Shown here piece after piece: positions 4,275 to 59,357 of a stretch of 64,000 bases of DNA. Numbering within the stretch: the stretch's first letter is position 1; each line of letters starts with the position of its first letter. The stretch is taken from the NCBI GenBank assembly GCA_025611195.1, contig GCA_025611195.1_4718.1; one strand, 5' to 3'. A program made the position numbers and the translations under genes. The notes under the pieces are model-generated. The model searched no databases and was not told the DNA's origin. It worked only from the letters and a program-made list of their open reading frames with translations. The DNA is from a phage.

Positions 4275-6071
4275 TCAATCGATTATGTCACGATCGTTAA
4301 TTTCTACAATTTCTTCATCGAATCGACCGACGTCTTTCTTCAAGCCTGCATTTGTTGCTGCAACGTCATTTGCGATTTGTGGGGTAATGATTAACCGACC
4401 GCGTTCATCGATAGGTGCGTACATACTGAACTTCTGACGTCCGGTTGGTTCGGAGTGTGGAAGATTCAGATAGCTTGCGCAGAACGGGATGGAACCACTC
4501 ACCAAACGACTCTCGTCAGCCAACGCAGCACCGCCTGCATTTTGGCTCTGGAGAACAACATGCGTGCTCACTTTGAACAGCATGCAATCGCCCGGTGACT
4601 GAATCGATGTTGCCACTTTCTCACGCTTATCACGATTGCTCTGGATATTGAGAATCGCTTCCGTTGCAACTTGATTGCGCAACGCCTTCTGTACATCGCG
4701 ATTGGTCATCTCTTTACGGTTGTTCTGTCGTTTACCACGTTCCGTGGTTTTAAGATGGAACCCCAGTTTAAAGATGCTTTTACGCACATCCTCCATGACG
4801 TATTCCAACACCATCAATTCCTTACCGAACATCGTCGTGGTATCAACACGACTCATTTCGATAGTAACGTTGTCAATCAGATACGCCATAAATTCGTAGA
4901 AGTCGTCGCAAGGAATATTTTCCTGTTTGAACTTCTTCTGTTGAATTTCATCAACGTAAAGATCGAGACTGTCGATGTGGTGGTTTACATCACGCAACAA
5001 ACGCGCATCCGCATTGTTGTTATTAAAGATAATCAAACCGAGTAATGTACGCCAATGGTCTGGCGCATTAGCGAACTCTTCAACCGGATAGTCTTCCGGG
5101 AAACGATCGTAATAACGGTCGATGAGATATAAGAACGCGCCGACAAGGCCAAGAACAATACGTTCCGTACCTCCACGTCTTACAGCGATTTGAATATCGG
5201 GATGTTTATAACGTACAGCGTTAGCGCTACGGCTTTTACCGCTTTTGCTGATACTAAAGCCTTTAGGAATAACCCCCATGGTGCGATAGATTACCCATTG
5301 GTCGCGCGGAAAATCGCGTTCAGCAAGATTCCGTCCGGTGACGGCTTCGACGCCAGCAAAACGTCGGAAACATTCACCCACCCCATACTTCGCAAAGAGA
5401 TAGTGACCCAGTGTGGTTACGCTGGTGTGGTTGATGTTGTCACCGTTCACTTTACTTTGTTTGGTAAGATGATAGATTTGCGACCAGGGTAACGACAGGT
5501 AATGACGATAATCGATACCCGTTGGTGTATCATTGCTCAGGAACTGATACGGTGTACGTTTAACCGTGATTTTGTCACGCGGAAGCATGATGAACGCCAT
5601 GTCTTTCGTGTAACTGATTACAGGGTCAGCGAGCACTGCACTGAGAATGAAGTTCGCACCACGTAGACGCATTTTACCACCCTGACCTACCGCGGGCAAT
5701 AGGAGAGGATGTCGGATAATGCAGTAGTCCTTTCCTGGTTCGCGGCGGTCACCTGATTCCATCGCACCATACCAGCGGAATTCTAGCATCACCATAAACA
5801 CGTCGGAAGGTGCAAGGTCGAAGGTCAGCTTACCGCTATCCTTCCCTTTGGTTTTCTTTCCTCCGCTTAAGTAGTGGAACTGTTCGCGGGCCATACAACG
5901 ACGCAGGCCATGATACACCAGATCCTTAGGTAAACTATCTTTGCTGTTCCGCCAAAGACGATCAACATAGGACTCAACATCTTGCATCTTATCGACGACG
6001 ATGTTGCGTGCTATCTTCTCGTTCATCTTCGGTGCAAGCTCAGCGACAGCTTTGCAGAATCTAGGATCCAT
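4275..6071 (-). CDS. hypothetical protein (598 aa)
   Basis: long ORF tightly packed in minus-strand gene string; no motif recognised. Confidence 0.7.
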   Translation of the reverse strand: MDPRFCKAVAELAPKMNEKIARNIVVDKMQDVESYVDRLWRNSKDSLPKDLVYHGLRRCMAREQFHYLSGGKKTKGKDSGKLTFDLAPSDVFMVMLEFRWYGAMESGDRREPGKDYCIIRHPLLLPAVGQGGKMRLRGANFILSAVLADPVISYTKDMAFIMLPRDKITVKRTPYQFLSNDTPTGIDYRHYLSLPWSQIYHLTKQSKVNGDNINHTSVTTLGHYLFAKYGVGECFRRFAGVEAVTGRNLAERDFPRDQWVIYRTMGVIPKGFSISKSGKSRSANAVRYKHPDIQIAVRRGGTERIVLGLVGAFLYLIDRYYDRFPEDYPVEEFANAPDHWRTLLGLIIFNNNNADARLLRDVNHHIDSLDLYVDEIQQKKFKQENIPCDDFYEFMAYLIDNVTIEMSRVDTTTMFGKELMVLEYVMEDVRKSIFKLGFHLKTTERGKRQNNRKEMTNRDVQKALRNQVATEAILNIQSNRDKREKVATSIQSPGDCMLFKVSTHVVLQSQNAGGAALADESRLVSGSIPFCASYLNLPHSEPTGRQKFSMYAPIDERGRLIITPQIANDVAATNAGLKKDVGRFDEEIVEINDRDIID

Positions 6072-45852: not shown

Positions 45853-47604
45853 ATGAGCGAACAAGAACGAAAACCTAAGAAGAAACTGCTCGGTATTCAA
45901 TGTCGACACATCAGCTATAACGAAGCGAACGATGGTAGTAAGAACGACCTCATGATCGCAAAAGAGATCATGTTCTTCGATGATAATACGCAAGCGACGA
46001 ACCTTCGCTTCTTCGAGAATTACAAACGTCCGTTTTGGGTGACGGTAGAGAGTAAACGCAAGAACAAATATAAAAAGGAAAGCGAGAAGCTCTCGCACGT
46101 GCGACGCTACGATGTCCGTCAAAGTGAGCTGGTTGAAAAGATCAGCTCGGTGCTTTATAAAAGACGTGCTGACGATAACACCCGTTTACAGCAGCTTGCA
46201 CGGAGTCCCTACCTCTATGGCACGGACGTTAGCGCCAGCTGTTATTTAAAAACCCAATACAATACAAAATGGCCGGAATACGTCGATAAATTACCCGCGT
46301 CTATCGCATGTTTCGATATCGAAACCGATGTTGTCCACGGACACGGTAAGATCGTCTGTATGTCTATTACAATGGGATACAATGCGATCCTTTGCTATAC
46401 CAAGGACTTCGTTGGTCATATTCCGAATGCGATTGAGAAAACCCATGAGAAGATTCGATATTACCTGGCCGAACGTCTGAACACCAAAGAAGATCCTCAT
46501 GCGTTCGAAAAATATCAGTACGATGTTCGAATCGTAGAAAGCCCAGCACAAGCGGTCATCCAATGCATGCAGAAGGTTCACGAATGGCAGCCGGATTATC
46601 TCCTTGGCTGGAATATCGCGTTCGATATTCCGCGTATGCTCCAGGCACTGAACGAGGAAGGGTATCGTCCCGAGGATGTTTTCTCCGATCCTCGTGTACC
46701 ACCTAAGTATCGTATTGCTCGCTGGGTACCACCGAAGACCGACAAGGTATCTGCTTCAGGTCGTAAAACCAACCTTACCCTTGAGCAAACCTGGCCGATG
46801 TTTTATACGATGGCCACGTATCAGGTTATGGATGCGATGTGTGGTTATAAGTTCGTTCGTTTAGGAAGACCGGATGAGGGGAGATACTCACTCGATGCGG
46901 TGTTAGAGCGAAATAAATGTCATACGAAATTAAAAGCAATTCCTGGTACAGAGGGGTTCACGGAGCTTGCGTGGCACGAAGAGATGCAAACGAACCATCA
47001 AATCGACTACGGCGTATATAACCTTTGGGATAACCAGGGTATCGAGGCGTTGGACCAGAAAACAAAAGACTATTCGATGACCATCCCTATTCGTTTGGCA
47101 GCATCGGATTTGAAAGATTTCAGTTCTAACCCTAAACGTATCTGCGATAAACTTTTCTTCGTTTATCTTAACCGTGGGGAAGTCATGGGATGCACCGCCG
47201 ACGACATGACCCAGGAAGAAGATAAGTGGGTTATCTCACGAACCGGACATATCGTCACATTGCCATGCGATCTCATGGCGGACAACGGCATCCATCTCTT
47301 CTGGGATATGCCGAACCTGAGAAGTTATATCCGTCTATTCGTTGCAGACCTCGACATTAGCAGTTCATACCCGAATGGGCAGATCCTGTTGAATCTATCC
47401 AGAGCATGTGTTTTTCGTGAGCTCTCACGCATTGAAGGCGTCTCTGACTATCAGTTCAGGAAGTTAGGTATCAACTTTATTACCGGAGGTAAAACGAACG
47501 CTGTAGACTTCTGTAGAATCGTTTATAAAGCACCATCGATGTTCGAACTCTTAGAACATTTCGATGCAACGCGTCCAAAAGGGGAAGCGCGGACCATCGA
47601 ATGA
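45853..47604 (+). CDS. family B DNA polymerase, N-terminal fragment (3'-5' exonuclease domain plus polymerase motif A); polymerase appears split
   Basis: Exo I CFDIETDV, Exo II LLGWNIAFDIPRM, Exo III YNLWD, motif A ADLDISSSYPNG; no motif B/C before the stop. Confidence 0.7.
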   Translation: MSEQERKPKKKLLGIQCRHISYNEANDGSKNDLMIAKEIMFFDDNTQATNLRFFENYKRPFWVTVESKRKNKYKKESEKLSHVRRYDVRQSELVEKISSVLYKRRADDNTRLQQLARSPYLYGTDVSASCYLKTQYNTKWPEYVDKLPASIACFDIETDVVHGHGKIVCMSITMGYNAILCYTKDFVGHIPNAIEKTHEKIRYYLAERLNTKEDPHAFEKYQYDVRIVESPAQAVIQCMQKVHEWQPDYLLGWNIAFDIPRMLQALNEEGYRPEDVFSDPRVPPKYRIARWVPPKTDKVSASGRKTNLTLEQTWPMFYTMATYQVMDAMCGYKFVRLGRPDEGRYSLDAVLERNKCHTKLKAIPGTEGFTELAWHEEMQTNHQIDYGVYNLWDNQGIEALDQKTKDYSMTIPIRLAASDLKDFSSNPKRICDKLFFVYLNRGEVMGCTADDMTQEEDKWVISRTGHIVTLPCDLMADNGIHLFWDMPNLRSYIRLFVADLDISSSYPNGQILLNLSRACVFRELSRIEGVSDYQFRKLGINFITGGKTNAVDFCRIVYKAPSMFELLEHFDATRPKGEARTIE

Positions 47605-47652
47605 ATCAAGTATGTTGATCCTCGTTTAACAAAAAGAAAACGCATGCGAAGC

Positions 47653-47684
47653 CCCTCCCCCTGGCGGAAGCCGGAGGGAGGGGT
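47653..47684. terminator. hairpin CCCCTCCCCC-TGGCGGAAGCCGGA-GGGAGGGG between convergent genes
   Basis: inverted repeat. Confidence 0.5.
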
Positions 47685-47701
47685 GGAAGTTTTATGTGTT
47701 T

Positions 47702-48151
47702 TTAATTATTGTTGATGGGGTTATCGTCCGGCTTATATTCGATGCCGTAGGCGACGTAACGGTCTGTCGTATGGACGACAAGCGAGATGGGGAAATCATA
47801 ATGCGTGGTTTTGTCTCGGACGAGCTGAGTAAAGAGATCCATATAACGTATTAAGTCTTCACTGGTGTAATCAGAAGGGAAGAAGACGTCGATGGTTATT
47901 GAATCTTCATAGAGGCGTATAACCAACTTATCCAGAAGGTCGGCATATTGGTTAGCCGGGGTGACGTCCAGCTCACAGATATCACGATCTCCTTCGTCTC
48001 GTGATACCCACATCATGGTATCCTGTAATGAGGTTTCAAGGATCTCGAAAATGCATTTTGCTGTAAGTTTTAGTTTATTTGTTACGTCATGGTTAGGTGA
48101 ATAATGGTCACGGATGTTTTTCACTGCGTCTTTGATAGAGAAAGTCATCAT
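47702..48151 (-). CDS. small paralog array member P1 (149 aa)
   Basis: AAGGAG SD; C-terminal YDFPISLVV...EYKPDDN motif shared with P6-P9. Confidence 0.65.
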   Translation of the reverse strand: MMTFSIKDAVKNIRDHYSPNHDVTNKLKLTAKCIFEILETSLQDTMMWVSRDEGDRDICELDVTPANQYADLLDKLVIRLYEDSITIDVFFPSDYTSEDLIRYMDLFTQLVRDKTTHYDFPISLVVHTTDRYVAYGIEYKPDDNPINNN

Positions 48152-48161
48152 TGATGCTCCT

Positions 48162-48671
48162 TCAAATGAAATTAATACGTGCGGCTGTCGAAACGAGTTC
48201 GCTTGTAAAGCAATGCTTACCGTCGGTGTTTACCGTGTATGTAAGTTTACAAACCTTAGCGGCAGGGTTAGCACCGATAACAAGGACGGTCGTCATATCG
48301 AACAGTTCCACACGTTGAAGAAATGCCGTATCGGCTACCTTCTGTAAACCGGTTGCTTCAAAATCGATGTGGTCGTTAAGAGGCACCAATTGGATTTCAA
48401 TGCGTTCTTTGAAAAGTTTAAACGTTACTGAAAACCGATGAGGTTCGGTATTAAGCCATAAAGGTCCACGTTGGAAGTGCTGATATGCTTCATTCGCGGT
48501 GTTCTCGAAAACCCAGCAGTCGTGGACAAGAGAAGCCTCTTGTAACGATGATTCCAGGTAGTCAAATACCTTGTTTATCGTTTTCTCAAGCATAGGCGCT
48601 AGTGAACCAGGGTATCCGGCAAATGCTGCTTCGGCAATCGATTTTATTGATACGATGTTGTTCTGACTCAT
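48162..48671 (-). CDS. small paralog array member P2 (~169 aa)
   Basis: start moved to ATG 48671 with AAGGAA SD; same size class and context. Confidence 0.55.
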   Translation of the reverse strand: MSQNNIVSIKSIAEAAFAGYPGSLAPMLEKTINKVFDYLESSLQEASLVHDCWVFENTANEAYQHFQRGPLWLNTEPHRFSVTFKLFKERIEIQLVPLNDHIDFEATGLQKVADTAFLQRVELFDMTTVLVIGANPAAKVCKLTYTVNTDGKHCFTSELVSTAARINFI

Positions 48672-48675
48672 TTCT

Positions 48676-49128
48676 TTATTCCTTGTTGGCTTCTTCAATG
48701 TGCTTGGTGTCGTAAGACAAATGCTGAATTAATTTTCTAGGTTCGATGAAAATACGACATGTGATAAACACATCAGGGTTGTATTGTTCCACGCAACGTC
48801 CGAAGGCTCGTTTTGCGGACTGACGCATCAATGTTAATTCCTGATCGTTCATCTCATCATCAAATTCGATGTGTATCGTGATTTTATCGGGAAATAAATA
48901 GATAGAGTAGTCGCTACCGATATCACCGTCGTCAAAACGATAATCGTTGTGGTAATGGTGGAGTTTACCTTCGTGTATCGTCTGGTACCACCCAACGATA
49001 CTATCAAGACCCATACCCAGGCGTCCGAATGCTTGAGTAATAACATCCTCAACGACGGATGCGGGCGTGGGACCATTGAATAGACGATCTAAGCGCTTTT
49101 TCATTGATTTGTCGGTTTTCATGTTCAT
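48676..49128 (-). CDS. small paralog array member P3 (~150 aa)
   Basis: start moved to ATG 49128 with AGGAAA SD; AFGRCVEQYNPDVFITCRIFIEP resembles family C-terminal motif. Confidence 0.55.
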   Translation of the reverse strand: MNMKTDKSMKKRLDRLFNGPTPASVVEDVITQAFGRLGMGLDSIVGWYQTIHEGKLHHYHNDYRFDDGDIGSDYSIYLFPDKITIHIEFDDEMNDQELTLMRQSAKRAFGRCVEQYNPDVFITCRIFIEPRKLIQHLSYDTKHIEEANKE

Positions 49129-49158
49129 TGTTTCTTTTCCTGTGTAGTCGGTATACAA

Positions 49159-49190
49159 CCCTTCCCCGGCCTGATGGCTAGGGAAGGGGC
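49159..49190 (-). terminator. hairpin CCCTTCCCC-loop-GGGAAGGGG inside the small-paralog array
   Basis: inverted repeat between P4 and P3. Confidence 0.45.
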
Positions 49191-49202
49191 TATGCTACGT
49201 TG

Positions 49203-49601
49203 TTATGCTTCGCAATCAGCTGAAGACGTCGCGCCTTTCTTACCAGCGATACGCCAAATCCGACACGCTGGATAATGGTTAACCTCTAGAGAGCAAGGAA
49301 TGTTATATTTCTCTTCCAGCGCATAAAGACATTTCGTTAGCTGCTCCAGCGCGTTCTCGTCGTGTCGTAACGCGTGGTGGCCTAATCGATGTTGGTCGTT
49401 CTTTATATACGCCTCGAAGAGAACATGTTGGCGATGTACGCTGACGTTTACAGCCTCGAGTATAGCTTGGTCGAGCATACGACTAAAGCACATCAACGAG
49501 TCAGATACGTTTTCTCGCTTAACCAGATCGATCATGGCGGGAATATACGAATGGTCGATGTTATCGATGACCGCTTTAGCGACGGAATCAGCAACGTTCA
49601 T
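49203..49601 (-). CDS. small paralog array member P4 (~132 aa)
   Basis: start at ATG 49601; N-terminus MNVADSVAKAVIDNIDH and C-terminus LEEKYNIPCSLEVNHYPA near-identical to P5. Confidence 0.65.
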   Translation of the reverse strand: MNVADSVAKAVIDNIDHSYIPAMIDLVKRENVSDSLMCFSRMLDQAILEAVNVSVHRQHVLFEAYIKNDQHRLGHHALRHDENALEQLTKCLYALEEKYNIPCSLEVNHYPACRIWRIAGKKGATSSADCEA

Positions 49602-49637
49602 CTTTTTAATCCCTAGTTTGTTATTGATCACGTATAT

Positions 49638-50033
49638 TTACTCTTTGACGTCAGTTGTCGTTTCGACATGCTTCTCACTACTGACGTACCAGAGCAGGTA
49701 CGCTGGGAAAAGATTGACCTCTAAGCTAAATGGGATATTGTATTTCTCTTCCATTTTACAGAGATGTTCTTTAATTAAATTTCTCGCGTCTCTGTCACCA
49801 CGAACAGAGTGCCAGTCTAGTTCTTTGTTCTCCTTTACCAGGACCTCTACGATGATACGTTGCTCGTGAACCTCGGTTTTCACAGTGAAAAGTAAATCGC
49901 TGCTATCAAAACGGGTAAAACGAATGTATGAACCAGGTGTTTTTTCTTGTTTAATAATATCGATCATGGTAGAAATGCGCGGATGATCGATGTTGTCGTT
50001 AACAGCTTTAACGATGGATTCTACAATGCTCAT
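49638..50033 (-). CDS. small paralog array member P5 (131 aa)
   Basis: MSIVESIVKAVNDNIDH...MEEKYNIPFSLEVNLFPA; tandem duplicate of P4. Confidence 0.65.
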   Translation of the reverse strand: MSIVESIVKAVNDNIDHPRISTMIDIIKQEKTPGSYIRFTRFDSSDLLFTVKTEVHEQRIIVEVLVKENKELDWHSVRGDRDARNLIKEHLCKMEEKYNIPFSLEVNLFPAYLLWYVSSEKHVETTTDVKE

Positions 50034-50065
50034 TTTTTATCCTTAATGTTATCGATTTGGAAATA

Positions 50066-50833
50066 TTACTTATTTTTGCTTTCTTTATAGACAGTTGTTA
50101 CCCACGATGGGAAAGCCGGATGGAAACAGAGCGTGAACGTAACTGTCGTATCGTATTTAAACGCGCAGTTCACTAACCGGGTATCGAACGTTTTCCTTAG
50201 ACCATCATCATCGTTATCGATGACAGCCATATCTCTTAATATCCCAAGCACGTTAACGCCGTCGAGTGTCTGGGTTACGACAAGTCGTCGTAATGGCCCG
50301 CATGTATAGTCACGTACAAATCCTTTCTTCGGGTCCGATACCCTGTTTAACGCATCGTGATTTTTGATGAATTCATCGGCGATACAATAGGTTTGTTCCC
50401 TTGCTTTATCGGGATCGTATTCTGCTAATAGTTCCTTCGTGTCGAACGTTATCATGTTATTATCATTCGATTCAGAAGGGAAACATAAAACTAAACGAAC
50501 AGGGTATTCGTATTGATCTGTTCTTGTTTCGAAAGCATTAGCTAGACACGGCTTGTATGCCTTTGCGTCGACATTGTCCAAACATGGATGCAATAATGCA
50601 TGAATAACGGCACCATCGTCAGTTAAACCGAATTCCAGAAATTGTACTTTATCAGTATCCGCTACGGTTTTCTGAAGATACGCTTTACCGTTTACGATAT
50701 CGGTATCCCACATATCGTCGTTTAACGATTCTTCAAACTTATCGAATATATGGTTTACGAGATTGACGAGTTCATCAATACGGCACTGTTGGTTGAATTC
50801 GATTAATCGCTGAACTTTATCTTTGATAGACAT
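50066..50833 (-). CDS. small paralog array member P6 (255 aa, possibly a two-domain fusion)
   Basis: contains AFETRTDQYEYPVRLVLCFPSE motif mid-protein and second related half. Confidence 0.6.
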   Translation of the reverse strand: MSIKDKVQRLIEFNQQCRIDELVNLVNHIFDKFEESLNDDMWDTDIVNGKAYLQKTVADTDKVQFLEFGLTDDGAVIHALLHPCLDNVDAKAYKPCLANAFETRTDQYEYPVRLVLCFPSESNDNNMITFDTKELLAEYDPDKAREQTYCIADEFIKNHDALNRVSDPKKGFVRDYTCGPLRRLVVTQTLDGVNVLGILRDMAVIDNDDDGLRKTFDTRLVNCAFKYDTTVTFTLCFHPAFPSWVTTVYKESKNK

Positions 50834-50835
50834 GA

Positions 50836-51294
50836 TTACCCCTTAGTTTCTTCTTCGTCTGGAGAGTACTCCATTGTGTAGAATTCATAACCATCGGAAA
50901 ACTTGAGTGTTAATGTAATAGGGAAATCGCACGGCATAGCTGATTTCGTAAACGCGTTATTAGCAACATCAGCCAACCGACGTATAGCATCAGTCCCGCT
51001 GACGCTGAACGGTAGTTGTATGTTGATAAGGATGCGGTGCTTGTAAACATGGAAAACAACGGTACTGTCAAGATAAACGCTATGGAACGGTATTGTTGGG
51101 ATGCGTTCCACGATGGTAAAATACGTCCCGTCATTATCGCTATGTCCCATCGACCAAATATCGGATTTGCGTAGATTTTGTTTGAGGGATTCGATACTTC
51201 GAGTGACGGTATCAACAACAGGCGTGACGTAAGTGTCTTTATGCGAGTCGAAAAGTTCGTTGACGTTAGATTCGAATGAATACATTGTTGCCAT
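50836..51294 (-). CDS. small paralog array member P7 (152 aa)
   Basis: C-terminus AFTKSAMPCDFPITLTLKFSDGYEFYTMEYSPDEE; start overlaps P8 stop (TAATG). Confidence 0.65.
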   Translation of the reverse strand: MATMYSFESNVNELFDSHKDTYVTPVVDTVTRSIESLKQNLRKSDIWSMGHSDNDGTYFTIVERIPTIPFHSVYLDSTVVFHVYKHRILINIQLPFSVSGTDAIRRLADVANNAFTKSAMPCDFPITLTLKFSDGYEFYTMEYSPDEEETKG

Positions 51295-51773
51295 TATTCT
51301 ACCTCTTTCTTCATCTTCATCGGAACAGAGAGTGCTGTTATCTCTGTTCCATTATCCGGTTCATACTCCAATGTAACGAGATTGCAGCCATCCGATAATT
51401 CATAATCGATCGCTAGGGGGAACGAGACACCGTGCGACTTTATGCATTTACCAAATGTCTCGTTGGCTGTATACATTAGAAGTTGCTTTGCGGCAAGCCC
51501 GTTTACGCTGAAAGGTAATCGTGCTGTCGCAGCGATACGATTATTGTAAACTCTGATATCGGTGATATCTACAATCGTAGCATTGCCGTGTTGTGTCGTT
51601 GGAACGGATAGGCTGTAGAAGTAAGGTTCGGAGTCGGAATCGGGCTCGTTAAATAATTCCCAGCACCCGTCCTCCTGCAATCTTACTTCGAGTATTTCAA
51701 AGCTTTTAATTATCGATTCTACCAGCTGCTCACCGTAAGAATCCCATGTCGTCATTTTTAACACCTTCGACAC
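51294..51773 (-). CDS. small paralog array member P8 (159 aa)
   Basis: C-terminus TFGKCIKSHGVSFPLAIDYELSDGCNLVTLEYEPDNG. Confidence 0.65.
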   Translation of the reverse strand: MSKVLKMTTWDSYGEQLVESIIKSFEILEVRLQEDGCWELFNEPDSDSEPYFYSLSVPTTQHGNATIVDITDIRVYNNRIAATARLPFSVNGLAAKQLLMYTANETFGKCIKSHGVSFPLAIDYELSDGCNLVTLEYEPDNGTEITALSVPMKMKKEVE

Positions 51774-51825
51774 CTTTTAACCGATGCGTGCCCCACCTAA
51801 CAAGGGACACGATATCGTTGATTAA

Positions 51826-52326
51826 TTACTCTTCTGTGTTTTCATTGTCAGGATCGTAATGGAATTCGAACAGCCCTGAACCGTCATGTCCGTTGATTGT
51901 TAGTATAACGGGCATATCGAATCCTCGGACGCGCGAATGAAAACACTGTGCTAATTTTAGTTTGGCGTATGCCGCTATTTCATTGACGGCAATACACGAC
52001 TCACCTGTTATACTCAGTATAACGTCGATACTAACAACGTTGTCGTGCAACGCAAAACGCCAGCGATCGATACGATTATTATCTTTAGCAGCTGTCTCGT
52101 TTACGAGATAGACTTTATCGTCAACTGACAAAGCAGGGCTCCAGCAACGTTCGTTTATTAAATTCGCCTGGAGTTTTAGTATCGTCTGATCAATAATATC
52201 CCAACACGCAACCAGTGTGGTGTCGGGCACTGAACAGAGAAGGGCGAGCACTTTATCCTTTATTTTAAGTGCTTCCACAGAGCGTCCGCAAATACCATGC
52301 ATTTCAACCTTCTTATTCATATTCAC
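51826..52326 (-). CDS. small paralog array member P9 (166 aa)
   Basis: C-terminus LAQCFHSRVRGFDMPVILTINGHDGSGLFEFHYDPDNE. Confidence 0.65.
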   Translation of the reverse strand: MNMNKKVEMHGICGRSVEALKIKDKVLALLCSVPDTTLVACWDIIDQTILKLQANLINERCWSPALSVDDKVYLVNETAAKDNNRIDRWRFALHDNVVSIDVILSITGESCIAVNEIAAYAKLKLAQCFHSRVRGFDMPVILTINGHDGSGLFEFHYDPDNENTEE

Positions 52327-54944: not shown

Positions 54945-56246
54945 TTAACTAATATAAAGTTCAGGATCGTAAGGCGCTAATGATACACTGGCGTTATGCA
55001 TTGCTTTCATCATAGTGTTCATGAAAACGTTGTTTACACCGGTGATCTCTGCCCCGATCGCGTCTGGGGTTGGAGCCATCGCGTTACCGCAACAGGTAGC
55101 ACAGTATTCCAATGGACCTGCTTTACAGCGCTGAGGATCGCGTAACTTGATGGTTTGTCCTTCCAAGGAAGCGAGTAATTCAGCATCAATAAGTTTAAGC
55201 GCTGCGCCGTCGATCATGTAACGGCCGACAAGTAGCTTATCTTTGATGTGGTCGCGGTTTACCGTGAACAGAATATGTTCTTGGGTGCCGCAGTCGTCCA
55301 TCGTGATTTTAAGGTTCTGTGTTGCGCGTTGTGATTCTTTAGCCGTTTGTCCAGCTAAAGCGGTCAACGCACCACGTGAGAACGAACCAGCACGTGCACT
55401 GTTGTTGTACTCCGCCCAATGGTCGACACGCATCCCTTCAGCCAGGCTGTGTGTGATAACGTTACGTTTACCAGGGTCAACGAAGTCAGCCTCAACCCCC
55501 ATCATGATGTGCGTTTTCTTTCGAGTATTACCGAAACTCTTGCCAGGGTTAATATAGAACCCTTCCGATTCATCGCCCTTAAAGGATTCCTTATCCATTT
55601 TGGTTAGCGTGGCTTCGAGTTTGATCAGTTCTTCAGGCGTGAACTTACCTTCCTCTTGCAAACGCGCTAACTCTTTATCACGATAGGCAATAATATCATC
55701 GTCGACCGTTAACGCTTTATCGCTCATCGATGGCACAATCAAACGGTTGATAGCGGTTAATGCGCTGATATTGTTGGTGAATTTCTTCACTTCGCTTGCG
55801 TATAGCGGGCCAATCGGACGTTCGTTAGGATCGGGTATTCCCTCTTCAGGGTCGTCTGCTACGCGTGGCGCAATCAGTGATTCTAGTGTACCGCTGGTCA
55901 ACCGTCCTGCCTGATATTCAATCTGAATACCGAAAGCATCATAAAGGACGTACATATTGAACAACGCTTCACCGAAGGTTGTGGCGGTTGTGTTCTTAAC
56001 CGACGGTAGATCACCAGGTGCAAGCTCCAACGGCTCCCAGAAATTCAACAAGGGTTTTGTTGGTTCTGTTTCCCATTGGTGTTCTTCACCGTCGATGGTA
56101 ACCGTAACGATGTTACCTTGACGACGTAATTTAGGCTGATACTTCTCAGCACCGCCTTCCGTAAAAGCAAATGCGTCGTTAATCCATTCAAGATAACGGT
56201 AGTGCCCTTCACGCAACGCGTAAAGGAAATAATCACGAGGTGTCAT
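54945..56246 (-). CDS. multisubunit RNA polymerase beta-prime-like fragment (bridge helix to start of trigger loop), 433 aa
   Basis: ARAGSFSRGALTALAGQTAKESQRATQNL resembles bridge helix ([22 protein letters not shown]); LRDPQRCKAGPLEYCATCCGNAMA...DAIGAEITGVNNVFMNTMMKAMH resembles LRSPxTC...CxxCYGxDLA...[24 protein letters not shown] of bacterial RpoC (recalled from memory). Confidence 0.65.
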   Translation of the reverse strand: MTPRDYFLYALREGHYRYLEWINDAFAFTEGGAEKYQPKLRRQGNIVTVTIDGEEHQWETEPTKPLLNFWEPLELAPGDLPSVKNTTATTFGEALFNMYVLYDAFGIQIEYQAGRLTSGTLESLIAPRVADDPEEGIPDPNERPIGPLYASEVKKFTNNISALTAINRLIVPSMSDKALTVDDDIIAYRDKELARLQEEGKFTPEELIKLEATLTKMDKESFKGDESEGFYINPGKSFGNTRKKTHIMMGVEADFVDPGKRNVITHSLAEGMRVDHWAEYNNSARAGSFSRGALTALAGQTAKESQRATQNLKITMDDCGTQEHILFTVNRDHIKDKLLVGRYMIDGAALKLIDAELLASLEGQTIKLRDPQRCKAGPLEYCATCCGNAMAPTPDAIGAEITGVNNVFMNTMMKAMHNASVSLAPYDPELYIS

Positions 56247-57228: not shown

Positions 57229-57702
57229 ATGCCAGTTTCATCCAAACCAAGAAAAAAATCAGTAGGAAAACCTAAAGCTCAGGAAACAACAGCGATTCGT
57301 TGGGACGAGTTACGTGAACCTATCGAAAACTGCGAATTGTTATTAGGCACCCTGGGTGCGGCTATTTACCAGGCAACACAACCTTGCCGTTTACGATTAA
57401 CCCAAAACAAGCGTGATGAGTTCGTTGCGTTATCAACAAGCACGAATAAAGATCTGACCGAACTTCAAACCGAGTTGACGACGATCAAGAACTCCATTAC
57501 GCCGATGTATGGTAAAGAAGTCGACGAACAAAGTATTCTGTTACAGTACAACTACGGGATGTCGTTAATGAACATCCTGGAACGCGCATCCGATATTCTG
57601 CGTCCTGACGTTGCACGCCTGAGCCAACTGCGTGTTGAAGGGATGGAGAACCAGATTCGATTCGCCAACAGTGTTAAATCTCAAGGAGCCACCGAAGCAT
57701 GA
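57229..57702 (+). CDS. hypothetical protein (157 aa)
   Basis: ORF, 4-nt overlap with following gene. Confidence 0.6.
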   Translation: MPVSSKPRKKSVGKPKAQETTAIRWDELREPIENCELLLGTLGAAIYQATQPCRLRLTQNKRDEFVALSTSTNKDLTELQTELTTIKNSITPMYGKEVDEQSILLQYNYGMSLMNILERASDILRPDVARLSQLRVEGMENQIRFANSVKSQGATEA

Positions 57703-59357
57703 GCGAACAAGAAAAAGATGTCGTGACGAATCAGGAAGCCACCGAGCGTTCAGAGTCGTCCGTTGAAACTACGATCCCAGCAAGTGAGGGTAAAGACGAA
57801 GCCGTCGCTACCGAAGGAGAGGTAGCGGCTCCAGAAGCAACCCGTGAAGAAGAACCATCACATCCACCGCTGGTTGATTTCTCGAAGGCGACGATACGTT
57901 TCCAATGCGAAGACATTCGTCCTAAGAGTCCGAAGAAAACAAAACGTCAGCCGTTGGTGTTACCGCTGTATTCTCCGCGTGTACAGACAGCGTATTACAA
58001 GGAATACATCAACGAAGCAATGGATACCGTGCAAGCCATTGTCGCTCAACGCGGTAAGCCTTCGGACGAGCAATTTGATAAATTCAGTAAAGCGGTAGTG
58101 CAATCGGTTGCTGATGGGCAATACCAACCGCGCGGGCCAGCTCATGATCGTGCGTTGGAGCGTAAGGGCAGTCAGTGGACTAACGTACCCGTAGACTCAT
58201 CGGGCGTTGGTCGTGTTATTCCTGGCATCCCACAACCGAACCATATTCCTGATGATGTCGAAGCGCCGCTGACAGGAACCGACGCAATCTATTTTGCAAT
58301 CCGCAATACGAAATCGGGCGCACCTGCGGTAATGCCGTTATGGCATAGCGGTATTAAGCTGCAGTTCAATCCACCGTCAAATGAACGTGTCGCAATTATG
58401 CATGAACGTATTGCACGCGATAAAATCCTGGGTGGGCGTGATAGTACCGGTTTCCTGTTTTCGGCAACCTCGATTATCACCATGAAGCACGCAATCGAAT
58501 TAGCATTAGAATGCTGTTACATGGCCAACGTACCGAACCTGGATATCCAGCGTTTGAAAGACATTATCCCGGTTACCGATGTTCCGGCACTGTTGTTGAA
58601 CGTGCTGGTAACCATGTACCCGTACGGGTATCCTTACGTGCAGACCTGCTATCAGAATCCAGAAACCTGCGACTATCGTGTTGAAGATACCGTAAGCTTT
58701 GCGAAGCTCTATCAAGTTGACAACAGCGCAATTACCAAACGTATGCGACAGATCATGACCGAAGGTCCGGTCATGACCGATGAACTTTTGCGTGAGTATG
58801 CGAACGAGCTGGGCGAAACAAACTCCCGTACGCTGGATCTGTCTGACAACGGTTCGGTTATCATTGAGCTTGAAGTACCGAAGATTTCACGTCAGATCGC
58901 CATGGGCGAACGCTGGTTAAGCGATACACTGGAAGATCTGCGTGATATTCTATCGCGTCCGTCAATGACCGAAGAAGAGCGTGATCGTGTTATTCGTGAG
59001 CGTCAGTTCTATAGCTGGATGCGTCAGTATGATGCGTGGATCAAATCGATGCATGTGTCGGTAAACGGTACCATGCGTCGTGTAAGCGATGCAGATACGG
59101 CAACGGTATTAGCACAGCTGTCTCGTGACAGCGACCTTCGTGAACGCTATATCGATGGGCTGATGCAGTTCATCGGTGATTCGACGATTGCGCTCGCAGC
59201 GATGCCTGCCTGGAAATGTCCGAAATGTAATACCGATATTGCTGACAATCTGCGTGACCAGAAATACTACGATCTGATTGCTTTGGATGTACCCCAGCTT
59301 TTTTTTACCCTAAACTCCGTCCAATCTCTTCAGGAGGGGATGGACGCGGTATTCTAA
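57699..59357 (+). CDS. hypothetical protein (552 aa); 3' end contains U-UUU-UUU slippery heptamer and may be extended by -1 frameshift
   Basis: long ORF; T8 run at 59299-59306 in X-XXY-YYZ register; -1 frame open from the run into 59420-59779. Confidence 0.7.
   Translation: MSEQEKDVVTNQEATERSESSVETTIPASEGKDEAVATEGEVAAPEATREEEPSHPPLVDFSKATIRFQCEDIRPKSPKKTKRQPLVLPLYSPRVQTAYYKEYINEAMDTVQAIVAQRGKPSDEQFDKFSKAVVQSVADGQYQPRGPAHDRALERKGSQWTNVPVDSSGVGRVIPGIPQPNHIPDDVEAPLTGTDAIYFAIRNTKSGAPAVMPLWHSGIKLQFNPPSNERVAIMHERIARDKILGGRDSTGFLFSATSIITMKHAIELALECCYMANVPNLDIQRLKDIIPVTDVPALLLNVLVTMYPYGYPYVQTCYQNPETCDYRVEDTVSFAKLYQVDNSAITKRMRQIMTEGPVMTDELLREYANELGETNSRTLDLSDNGSVIIELEVPKISRQIAMGERWLSDTLEDLRDILSRPSMTEEERDRVIRERQFYSWMRQYDAWIKSMHVSVNGTMRRVSDADTATVLAQLSRDSDLRERYIDGLMQFIGDSTIALAAMPAWKCPKCNTDIADNLRDQKYYDLIALDVPQLFFTLNSVQSLQEGMDAVF
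59299..59306 (+). other. homopolymeric T8 tract / candidate -1 programmed ribosomal frameshift or slippage site
   Basis: 0-frame codons CTT TTT TTT ACC; -1 frame has no stop until 59779. Confidence 0.4.

Follow-up and report, generated by a model that had tools for sequence, protein, structure and literature searches.

What became of a family B DNA polymerase gene that ends shortly after motif A? The question is raised by an open reading frame (ORF) of 583 amino acids (aa), here called ORF A, which runs on the plus strand from an ATG at 45853 to a stop at 47604 in a 64,000-nucleotide stretch of phage DNA (contig GCA_025611195.1_4718.1 of GenBank assembly GCA_025611195.1; this whole stretch is referred to below as the window). 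A first-pass annotation, made from the sequence alone, had recognized in this frame the three exonuclease motifs and a segment resembling polymerase motif A, and had pointed out that the protein stops about 75 residues later with neither motif B nor motif C. Both parts of this description were borne out: Exo I, Exo II, Exo III and motif A are present in the order claimed, the protein ends 74 residues past the motif A segment, and a regular-expression scan of all six frames of the window found no KxxxNSxYG and no DTDS. The annotation offered two explanations, namely a split polymerase with the remainder of the palm and the thumb encoded elsewhere, or a degenerate or exonuclease-only derivative, and it named as a counter-case a sequencing error that hides a continuation of the frame.

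Split polymerases of the phiKZ type have been in the literature since 2008-2012, and ORF A is a further member of this arrangement, already known for all phiKZ-like nucleus-forming jumbo phages. We conclude that ORF A is very probably the intact N-terminal subunit of the known two-chain family B replicase of these chimallin-encoding phages. What remains of interest is where the chain is broken, and the reading that the two chains build one polymerase active site between them. Below we describe the conservation of ORF A and its comparison with gp43, the replicase of phages RB69 and T4, then the second chain and the position of the break, and finally the introns found in relatives of the gene.

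Conservation of ORF A and the assignment of motif A

The DNA of ORF A is 95.6% identical to that of Escherichia phage Goslar, a nucleus-forming jumbo phage (Goslarvirus), and the gene marks the window as part of a phiKZ-like, nucleus-forming jumbo phage. The protein matched PHROG 3011 ('DNA polymerase', E = 4.7e-178) end to end, from residue 8 to 574 and from profile position 5 to 568 of 576. A search of 5.8 billion proteins returned 209 homologs, almost all of them 555-640 aa long. By tblastn, 291 phage records were matched, at least 80% of the query being covered at the same length in 287 of them, with coverage of 95-98% in phiKZ, OBP, RSL2, phiEaH2 and others. As a length of about 560-600 aa is conserved in this family, the length of ORF A is a family trait and not a truncation, which excludes a sequencing error hiding a continuation; a family B polymerase that stops after motif A is thus a real conserved gene product and not an artefact. 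Many GenBank records label homologs of ORF A as 'DNA polymerase' or 'T4-like DNA polymerase'.

The catalytic residues of motif A and of the DnaQ-like 3'-5' exonuclease motifs, which follow in the order Exo I (DxE), Exo II (Nx2-3[FY]D) and Exo III (Yx3D), are conserved throughout the family. D155 and E157 of Exo I showed no variation among 95 family members; in Exo II, N254 was invariant and D258 was an aspartate in 120 of 121 members, and Y389 and D393 of Exo III were found in all 121. In motif A, D499 was conserved in 117/117 sequences, D501 in 108/109, and both Y506 and P507 in 98/98; further downstream, conservation is 90% or more at N514 and at T519. The motif A segment stays invariant despite an overall family identity of about 35%. 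With all exonuclease and motif A residues invariant family-wide, the proposal of a degenerate or exonuclease-only derivative found no support. The Pfam model DNA_pol_B_exo1 (PF03104) matched residues 147-264 of ORF A with 16 bits (E = 0.008), below its gathering threshold of 23 bits; the family has diverged too far for this model. A precomputed PF03104 match does exist for one homolog (P0083).

To place these motifs on a polymerase of known layout we compared the ORF A family by hhalign with a 51-member gp43 family that has RB69 gp43 as its first sequence. The two families aligned with a probability of 97.9% (E = 4.3e-13) from RB69 position 107 to about 435, where the alignment ends, and the exonuclease and motif A residues were paired with those of RB69 as listed in Table 1. 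Around motif A, VADLDISSSYPNGQILLNLSRAC of ORF A was paired with MSFDLTSLYPSIIRQVNISPET of RB69 (positions 404-429), D501-I-S-S-S-Y506-P507 being matched to D411-L-T-S-L-Y416-P417 and the family consensus NISKET to RB69 NISPET. The tail of ORF A alone (aa 455-583) gave a single match to the gp43 profile, again at RB69 404-429 (E = 5.6e-4). Detection depended on profile-profile and fold comparison, as hmmsearch with the gp43 profile did not find ORF A. For the fold we used an AlphaFold model of the monomer built on 95 homologs, with a predicted local distance difference test score (pLDDT) of 88.3 overall, about 95 for residues 1-460 and 44-87 for residues 460-583. Using this model, the top matches reported by Foldseek in the PDB were RB69 and T4 gp43 (E about 5e-13), followed by Pol epsilon and E. 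coli Pol II; these matches ranged from E = 5e-13 to 3e-10 over about 450 aligned columns. Taken together with the family invariance, the alignment with gp43 supports the motif A call as correct at the profile level. At that level DLDISSSYPNG of ORF A is the family B motif A, usually written DxxSLYPS and located where the first palm strand ends, and the assignment made in the first pass came through the comparison.

The second chain and the position of the break

The missing part of the polymerase was found through the annotation of Goslar, as gp244 ('DNA polymerase', 717 aa, positions 174,314-176,467, minus strand). The chimallin gene of the nuclear shell, gp246, is two genes away from it, and gp068, the Goslar counterpart of ORF A, is about 95 kb away; the two polymerase genes are on opposite strands. 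gp244 matched the Pfam family PF20286, 'Divergent Family B DNA polymerase', over the whole model (E = 2.4e-204), and also PHROG 2927. Its homolog in phage 201phi2-1, gp83, is equated with phiKZ gp50 and EL gp21 in GenBank notes. ORF A gave no match to PF20286 in the Pfam scan and is therefore the other subunit. In the window no polymerase C-terminal half was found, either by tblastn with Goslar gp244 or with a profile hidden Markov model of 14 homologs, and the partner is therefore encoded outside the 64 kb.

The locus search with gp244 returned only near-identical contigs; the partner alignment was made from 14 diverse catalytic chains of GenBank phages (Goslar, 201phi2-1, SL2 of the phiKZ genus, OBP, and EL-like, SPN3US-like, Erwinia, Ralstonia, Vibrio, Aeromonas, Xanthomonas and Serratia phages). 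In all 14 phages the residues R122, K126, Q148, K152, N155, N156, S159, G160, S404-D405-T406-D407, K484, Y486, K506 and G507 (gp244 numbering) were invariant. Residues 85-185 of gp244 aligned to RB69 445-593 (E = 1e-3), with R122 and K126 corresponding to R482 and K486, and motif B (Q148, K152, N156, G160) to Q556, K560, N564 and G568. The C-terminal part aligned to RB69 579-788, the DTD corresponding to D621-T-D623, the KxY to K706-R-Y708 and the KG to K726...G729. These placements are collinear and consistent with the Pfam family. The expectation that palm remainder, fingers and thumb are encoded elsewhere is thus supported, and the ORF with motifs B (K152..N156..G160) and C (S404-D-T-D407) for which a search had been proposed was found as gp244 in Goslar. 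Ahead of the aligned region, the partner carries a Met-led N-terminal extension of about 85 residues, conserved in the 14 phages and with no counterpart in gp43. The number of phage records with the ORF A chain is exactly that with the gp244 chain, 291, and the counts per genus agree as well; Goslar has both chains. This equal occurrence fits an obligate partnership. From the co-occurrence and from Goslar we infer that the window's own genome also encodes a PF20286 partner.

The two chains tile gp43, ORF A corresponding to RB69 residues 1 to about 435 and the partner to about 445 to the end. Judged from these alignments, the break appears to fall inside the palm, at RB69 positions of about 430-445, after motif A and before the fingers. 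A break past motif A would leave the motif A aspartate, D501, on the chain that is usually called the exonuclease. ORF A would then supply the N-terminal domain, the 3'-5' proofreading exonuclease with all its catalytic residues, and the first palm segment with the metal-binding D501. The second chain (Goslar gp244, phiKZ gp50) would supply the fingers (R122/K126 and motif B), the long helical insert, motif C (D405-T-D407), the KxY and the thumb. The C-terminal tail of ORF A (64 residues), otherwise disordered, and the extension of about 85 residues at the N-terminus of the partner may be the docking elements through which the chains come together, and motif A of one chain and motif C of the other would form a single composite polymerase active site.

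In its placement of motif A, this proposal departs from the 2011 description of these enzymes. Kazlauskas and Venclovas (2011; PMC3201878), who discovered the divergent polymerase chain, noted that the exonuclease had been recognized before as a separate ORF (Thomas et al., 2008), and they put both catalytic aspartates, D229 and D398 of phage EL, on the polymerase chain; our alignments put motif A on the chain of ORF A. For the phiKZ enzyme, the term 'split subunit DNA polymerase' is used in the SPN3US paper (PMC5105663). Iyer et al. (2021; PMC7824862) described the polymerase of group-1 jumbo phages as lacking a fused exonuclease, the exonuclease being encoded elsewhere as a standalone protein that might associate; they also reported that in the phiKZ-type enzyme a long helical segment is inserted ahead of the second palm strand, and found no sliding clamp in these phages. 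More recently, phiKZ gp50 and gp82 were both treated as DNA polymerase, and both localised to the phage nucleus or its immediate vicinity (bioRxiv 10.1101/2024.03.24.586471). In the alignment of the 14 chains, EL D398 is the second aspartate of the DTD. The D229 column, which is D221 in Goslar, holds an aspartate in 12 of the 14 phages; the two exceptions, the SPN3US-like phage and Aeromonas phage D3, have an asparagine. The column sits 69 residues past the motif B lysine; being after motif B, it is in the wrong order for motif A. No invariant acidic residue was found before motif C on the partner chain in these 14 sequences. We consider it likely that the split lies inside the palm and separates D501, carried by the 'exonuclease' chain, from motif C, carried by its partner, that the two chains form an obligate heterodimer with a composite active site, and that the assignment of D229 in EL is a misalignment.

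Several points weigh against this picture. Besides the 2011 placement of both aspartates on the polymerase chain, the profile matches between the partner and gp43 are individually weak (probabilities of 7-27%, E = 1e-3 to 5e-3, with 14 sequences), and they are carried mainly by the coherent order of the motifs and by the name of the Pfam family. The partner gene was identified in Goslar and in near-identical contigs, and is absent from the 64 kb of the window's own genome. In the monomer model, the motif A region of ORF A (495-511) has a pLDDT below 50, too low for a structural superposition of motif A; such a low score is what a segment that folds only against its partner would show. Finally, what the analysis establishes directly is the homology, the motif content, the conserved length, the location of the partner and the co-occurrence; the physical association of the chains and the composite active site are what we infer.

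We see as improbable the main alternative, in which ORF A is a stand-alone proofreading exonuclease, loosely tied to a self-sufficient polymerase chain with a first-strand aspartate of its own, and in which DLDxxxxYP survives as a conserved relic that serves structure or DNA binding rather than catalysis. This is how we read the 2011 and 2021 descriptions, and it agrees both with the standalone exonuclease of Iyer et al. and with an acidic residue in the D229-equivalent column of 12 of the 14 phages. However, that column holds an asparagine in the remaining two and comes after motif B, and the alignment of the partner chain with gp43 begins no earlier than about RB69 position 445. The motif of ORF A, for its part, matches RB69 404-429 residue by residue, including NISPET, stays invariant at the family identity given above, and is exactly where homing introns are located in relatives (see below). 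For biochemical or structural work on a phiKZ-type replicase the two chains should be expressed together, since what is usually labelled the exonuclease appears to carry the catalytic motif A.

Pairs comparable to ORF A and gp244 are known from the other phiKZ-like phages: gp82 and gp50 in phiKZ, an exonuclease ORF and gp83 in 201phi2-1, an exonuclease ORF and gp21 in EL, and a 'T4-like DNA polymerase' and gp055 in OBP. With these, ORF A, which comes from a Goslar-like coliphage, shares direct orthology and the same two-gene layout with the genes far apart. Compared with RB69/T4 gp43, the N-terminal and exonuclease fold, Exo I-III and the motif A residues are common to gp43 and ORF A, and the R/K, motif B, motif C, KxY and KxG residues are common to gp43 and the partner, but gp43 is one polypeptide of 903 aa, whereas the phiKZ type consists of two, of 583 and about 717 aa.

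A replicase divided in a similar manner is found in some T4-like phages, among them the Acinetobacter phages Acj9, ZZ1 and PhT2, where gp43 is split into gp43A and gp43B. As in ORF A, the first chain carries the N-terminal domain, the exonuclease and motif A, and the second carries motifs B and C and the thumb. The N-terminal fragments in many T4-like Acinetobacter phage records (about 502 aa; P0367-P0400, labelled 'split DNA polymerase') align to RB69 gp43 1-503, as judged from P0400, which was the one compared, and are about 60% identical to RB69 gp43, as opposed to about 15% for ORF A. The break is at RB69 position of about 503 in gp43A/gp43B, inside the fingers and after R482/K486, and in the palm at about 430-445 in the system of ORF A, which has its halves about 95 kb apart and an extra terminal extension on each. 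The split in the T4-like Acinetobacter phages thus looks like an independent event in a family B replicase, at a different position. Splits within the catalytic domain into two genes have also been described for the family B polymerases of Methanothermobacter thermautotrophicus and of group B magroviruses (PMC5434244); according to that description these are archaeal, independent events with other split positions. The polymerase described for phage PaBG is of the Pol I type and has no bearing on this comparison.

Introns, inteins and the integrity of the gene

The Goslar gene is interrupted by a 1,762-nt insert between the codons of D499 and L500 (GAU|CUC; NC_048170 81,187-82,948, which is 7498-9259 of L001), corresponding to 47349|47350 in the window. 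Within the insert lie gp069, which encodes an HNH/NUMOD1 endonuclease, and the core of a group I intron (RF00028, E = 1.3e-9; its 44.7 bits fall short of the gathering score of 50). When spliced conceptually, the Goslar gene encodes 583 aa, of which 581 are identical to ORF A. The GenBank product of gp068 consists of exon 1 only and is 499 aa long because of the intron. This annotation can therefore be corrected, the entry being an exon-1 fragment of the subunit. In a metagenomic relative (L022; ENA ERZ28616137 scaffold_6, 5480-~5920), an insert of about 440 nt follows the D501 codon, equivalent to 47355|47356 in the window; it has no endonuclease gene and resembles a group I intron weakly (RF00028, 27 bits, E = 1e-4), and the exon 2 that follows it begins with IVSTYPNVQTILNISRETT. 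Among 22 short gene calls in the ORF A family, seven end at residue 499 and five at residue 501, which suggests two recurrent intron insertion sites within motif A. The repeated targeting of motif A by homing elements is consistent with its being the most constrained stretch of the gene, and the recurrent group I insertions at codons 499 and 501 show such elements following those codons of an essential gene that vary least. Unlike the Goslar gene, the copy in the window has no intron. The check for inteins or introns that had been proposed thus gave a mixed outcome: introns exist in relatives and are absent from the window copy, and no intein was found.

Two further observations concern intervening sequences. 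Another group I intron (Intron_gpI) is annotated in Goslar at NC_048170 168,235-170,910, which is 31235-33910 of L005. It lies beside an HNH endonuclease gene, gp186, and adjoins gp247, an RNA polymerase beta-prime-like gene; homing introns are therefore found in no fewer than two polymerase genes of this phage. In the phiKZ genus, the homologs of ORF A (NC_004629 77,966-79,858 and other Phikzvirus records) were matched by tblastn in two pieces and span about 1,893 nt for 572 residues, some 177 nt more than needed, which may reflect a lineage-specific insertion or a small intervening sequence.

Could the two halves be joined into a single-chain polymerase after all, by a split intein or by trans-splicing? 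Archaeal split polymerase genes joined by inteins exist (PMC5434244), and group I introns do occur in this gene in relatives. Yet no Hint/intein domain was found in ORF A or gp244 by Pfam scans, and the only intein match in a PDB search of ORF A (E = 0.51) covered residues 386-465, in the middle of the exonuclease region and not at a terminus. At the ends where a junction would have to form, ORF A has a family-specific tail and the partner its ordinary Met-led extension. The genes are far apart on opposite strands in Goslar, and the introns of the relatives are of the ordinary cis type, inside the ORF A gene itself. Joining of the halves is therefore very improbable.

Downstream of ORF A, the hairpin and the convergent gene described in the first-pass annotation were both confirmed, by folding and in the ORF listing. 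The region 47640-47705 folds with a minimum free energy of -35.9 kcal/mol (z = -4.9; none of 200 shuffles was as stable). The hairpin is followed by the convergent ORF 47702-48151 on the minus strand, and an identical hairpin sequence follows exon 2 in Goslar. The hairpin after the ORF A stop had escaped a scan for sigma-70 and terminator consensus sequences, and it was direct folding that found it. That ORF A is a truncated gene, be it a pseudogene, the product of an assembly or sequencing error, or a frame whose continuation is hidden by a frameshift, can for practical purposes be dismissed, for although a family B polymerase ending so soon after motif A looks truncated when taken alone, and the Goslar entry is 499 aa, the latter is accounted for by the intron, while the end-to-end PHROG match, the shared length of the homologs, the strong terminator with a convergent gene behind it and the absence of a polymerase C-terminal half in any frame of the window all contradict a truncation.

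Features of the locus and neighbouring genes

The coordinates of the features discussed above are collected in Table 1.

Table 1. Features of ORF A and its 3' flank, in window coordinates. Residues are those of ORF A; RB69 counterparts are those of gp43.
Feature	Residues (aa)	Position	Strand	RB69 counterpart or remark
Probable N-terminal subunit of split family B DNA polymerase, complete coding sequence		45853..47604	+	phiKZ gp82 / Goslar gp068 type
Domain order of ORF A				N-terminal domain, 3'-5' exonuclease domain, first palm segment with motif A, family-specific C-terminal tail
Exo I, FDIETD (D155, E157)	154-159	46312..46329	+	D155/E157 aligned to D114/E116
Exo II, WNIAFDIPR (N254, D258)	253-261	46609..46635	+	WNVESFDIPY; D258 aligned to D222
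Exo III, YNLWD (Y389, D393)	389-393	47017..47031	+	Y389/D393 aligned to Y323/D327
Motif A (profile level), DLDISSSYPNG	499-509	47347..47379	+	D501 aligned to catalytic D411; Y506/P507 to Y416/P417
Palm segment after motif A, NLSRAC (family consensus NISKET)		47392..47409	+	N424-I-S-P-E-T429 (hhalign)
C-terminal tail (64 residues)	520-583	47410..47601	+	None in gp43; predicted short helices, low to moderate confidence
GC-rich hairpin followed by U-rich tract, probable intrinsic terminator between converging genes		47651..47684	+	Found by folding

Two other genes of the window were considered as the missing polymerase half and rejected. The first, at 4275-6071 on the minus strand (598 aa), corresponds to Goslar gp039, deposited as an unspecified 'polymerase', and to PHROG 2943, and it proved to be an RNA polymerase beta fragment. 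It showed no profile similarity to gp43 by hhalign. Its AlphaFold model (pLDDT 89.5) matched chain E of the phiKZ non-virion RNA polymerase (nvRNAP) by Foldseek (E = 1e-33, template modelling score 0.84), as well as the nvRNAP of AR9 and bacterial RpoB. Going by the modelled fold, the protein is an N-terminal beta-subunit fragment of the phage multisubunit RNA polymerase, a family with 933 representatives in an exhaustive profile search, and the label of gp039 is thus another annotation that can be corrected. The second, at 57699-59357 on the plus strand, was tried because, together with a small overlapping gene upstream, it resembled the neighbourhood 'SH3 gene + polymerase' described by Iyer et al.; the gene matched only PHROGs of unknown function (4585/8054) and has no polymerase motifs. 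In this gene pair (57229-59357, plus strand; Goslar gp080/gp081), the upstream gene of 157 aa overlaps the start of the 552-aa gene by 4 nt, and the 552-aa protein has a low-complexity acidic N-terminus.

The minus-strand run at 47702-52326, directly downstream of ORF A, comprises about nine small ORFs of 142-255 aa (the region of Goslar gp070-075). Several of them, judged by eye, have in common a C-terminal motif on the pattern of Y-[DN]-x-P-x-x-L, examples being KYNIPCSLEV, KYNIPFSLEV, YEYPVRLVL, HYDFPISLVV and CDFPITLTL, and they look like a tandem family of paralogs. Further along, the minus-strand gene at 54945-56246 (433 aa; Goslar gp078) matched PHROG 2962, 'RNA polymerase beta subunit' (E = 7e-106), and is another fragment of one of the split RNA polymerases of the phage.

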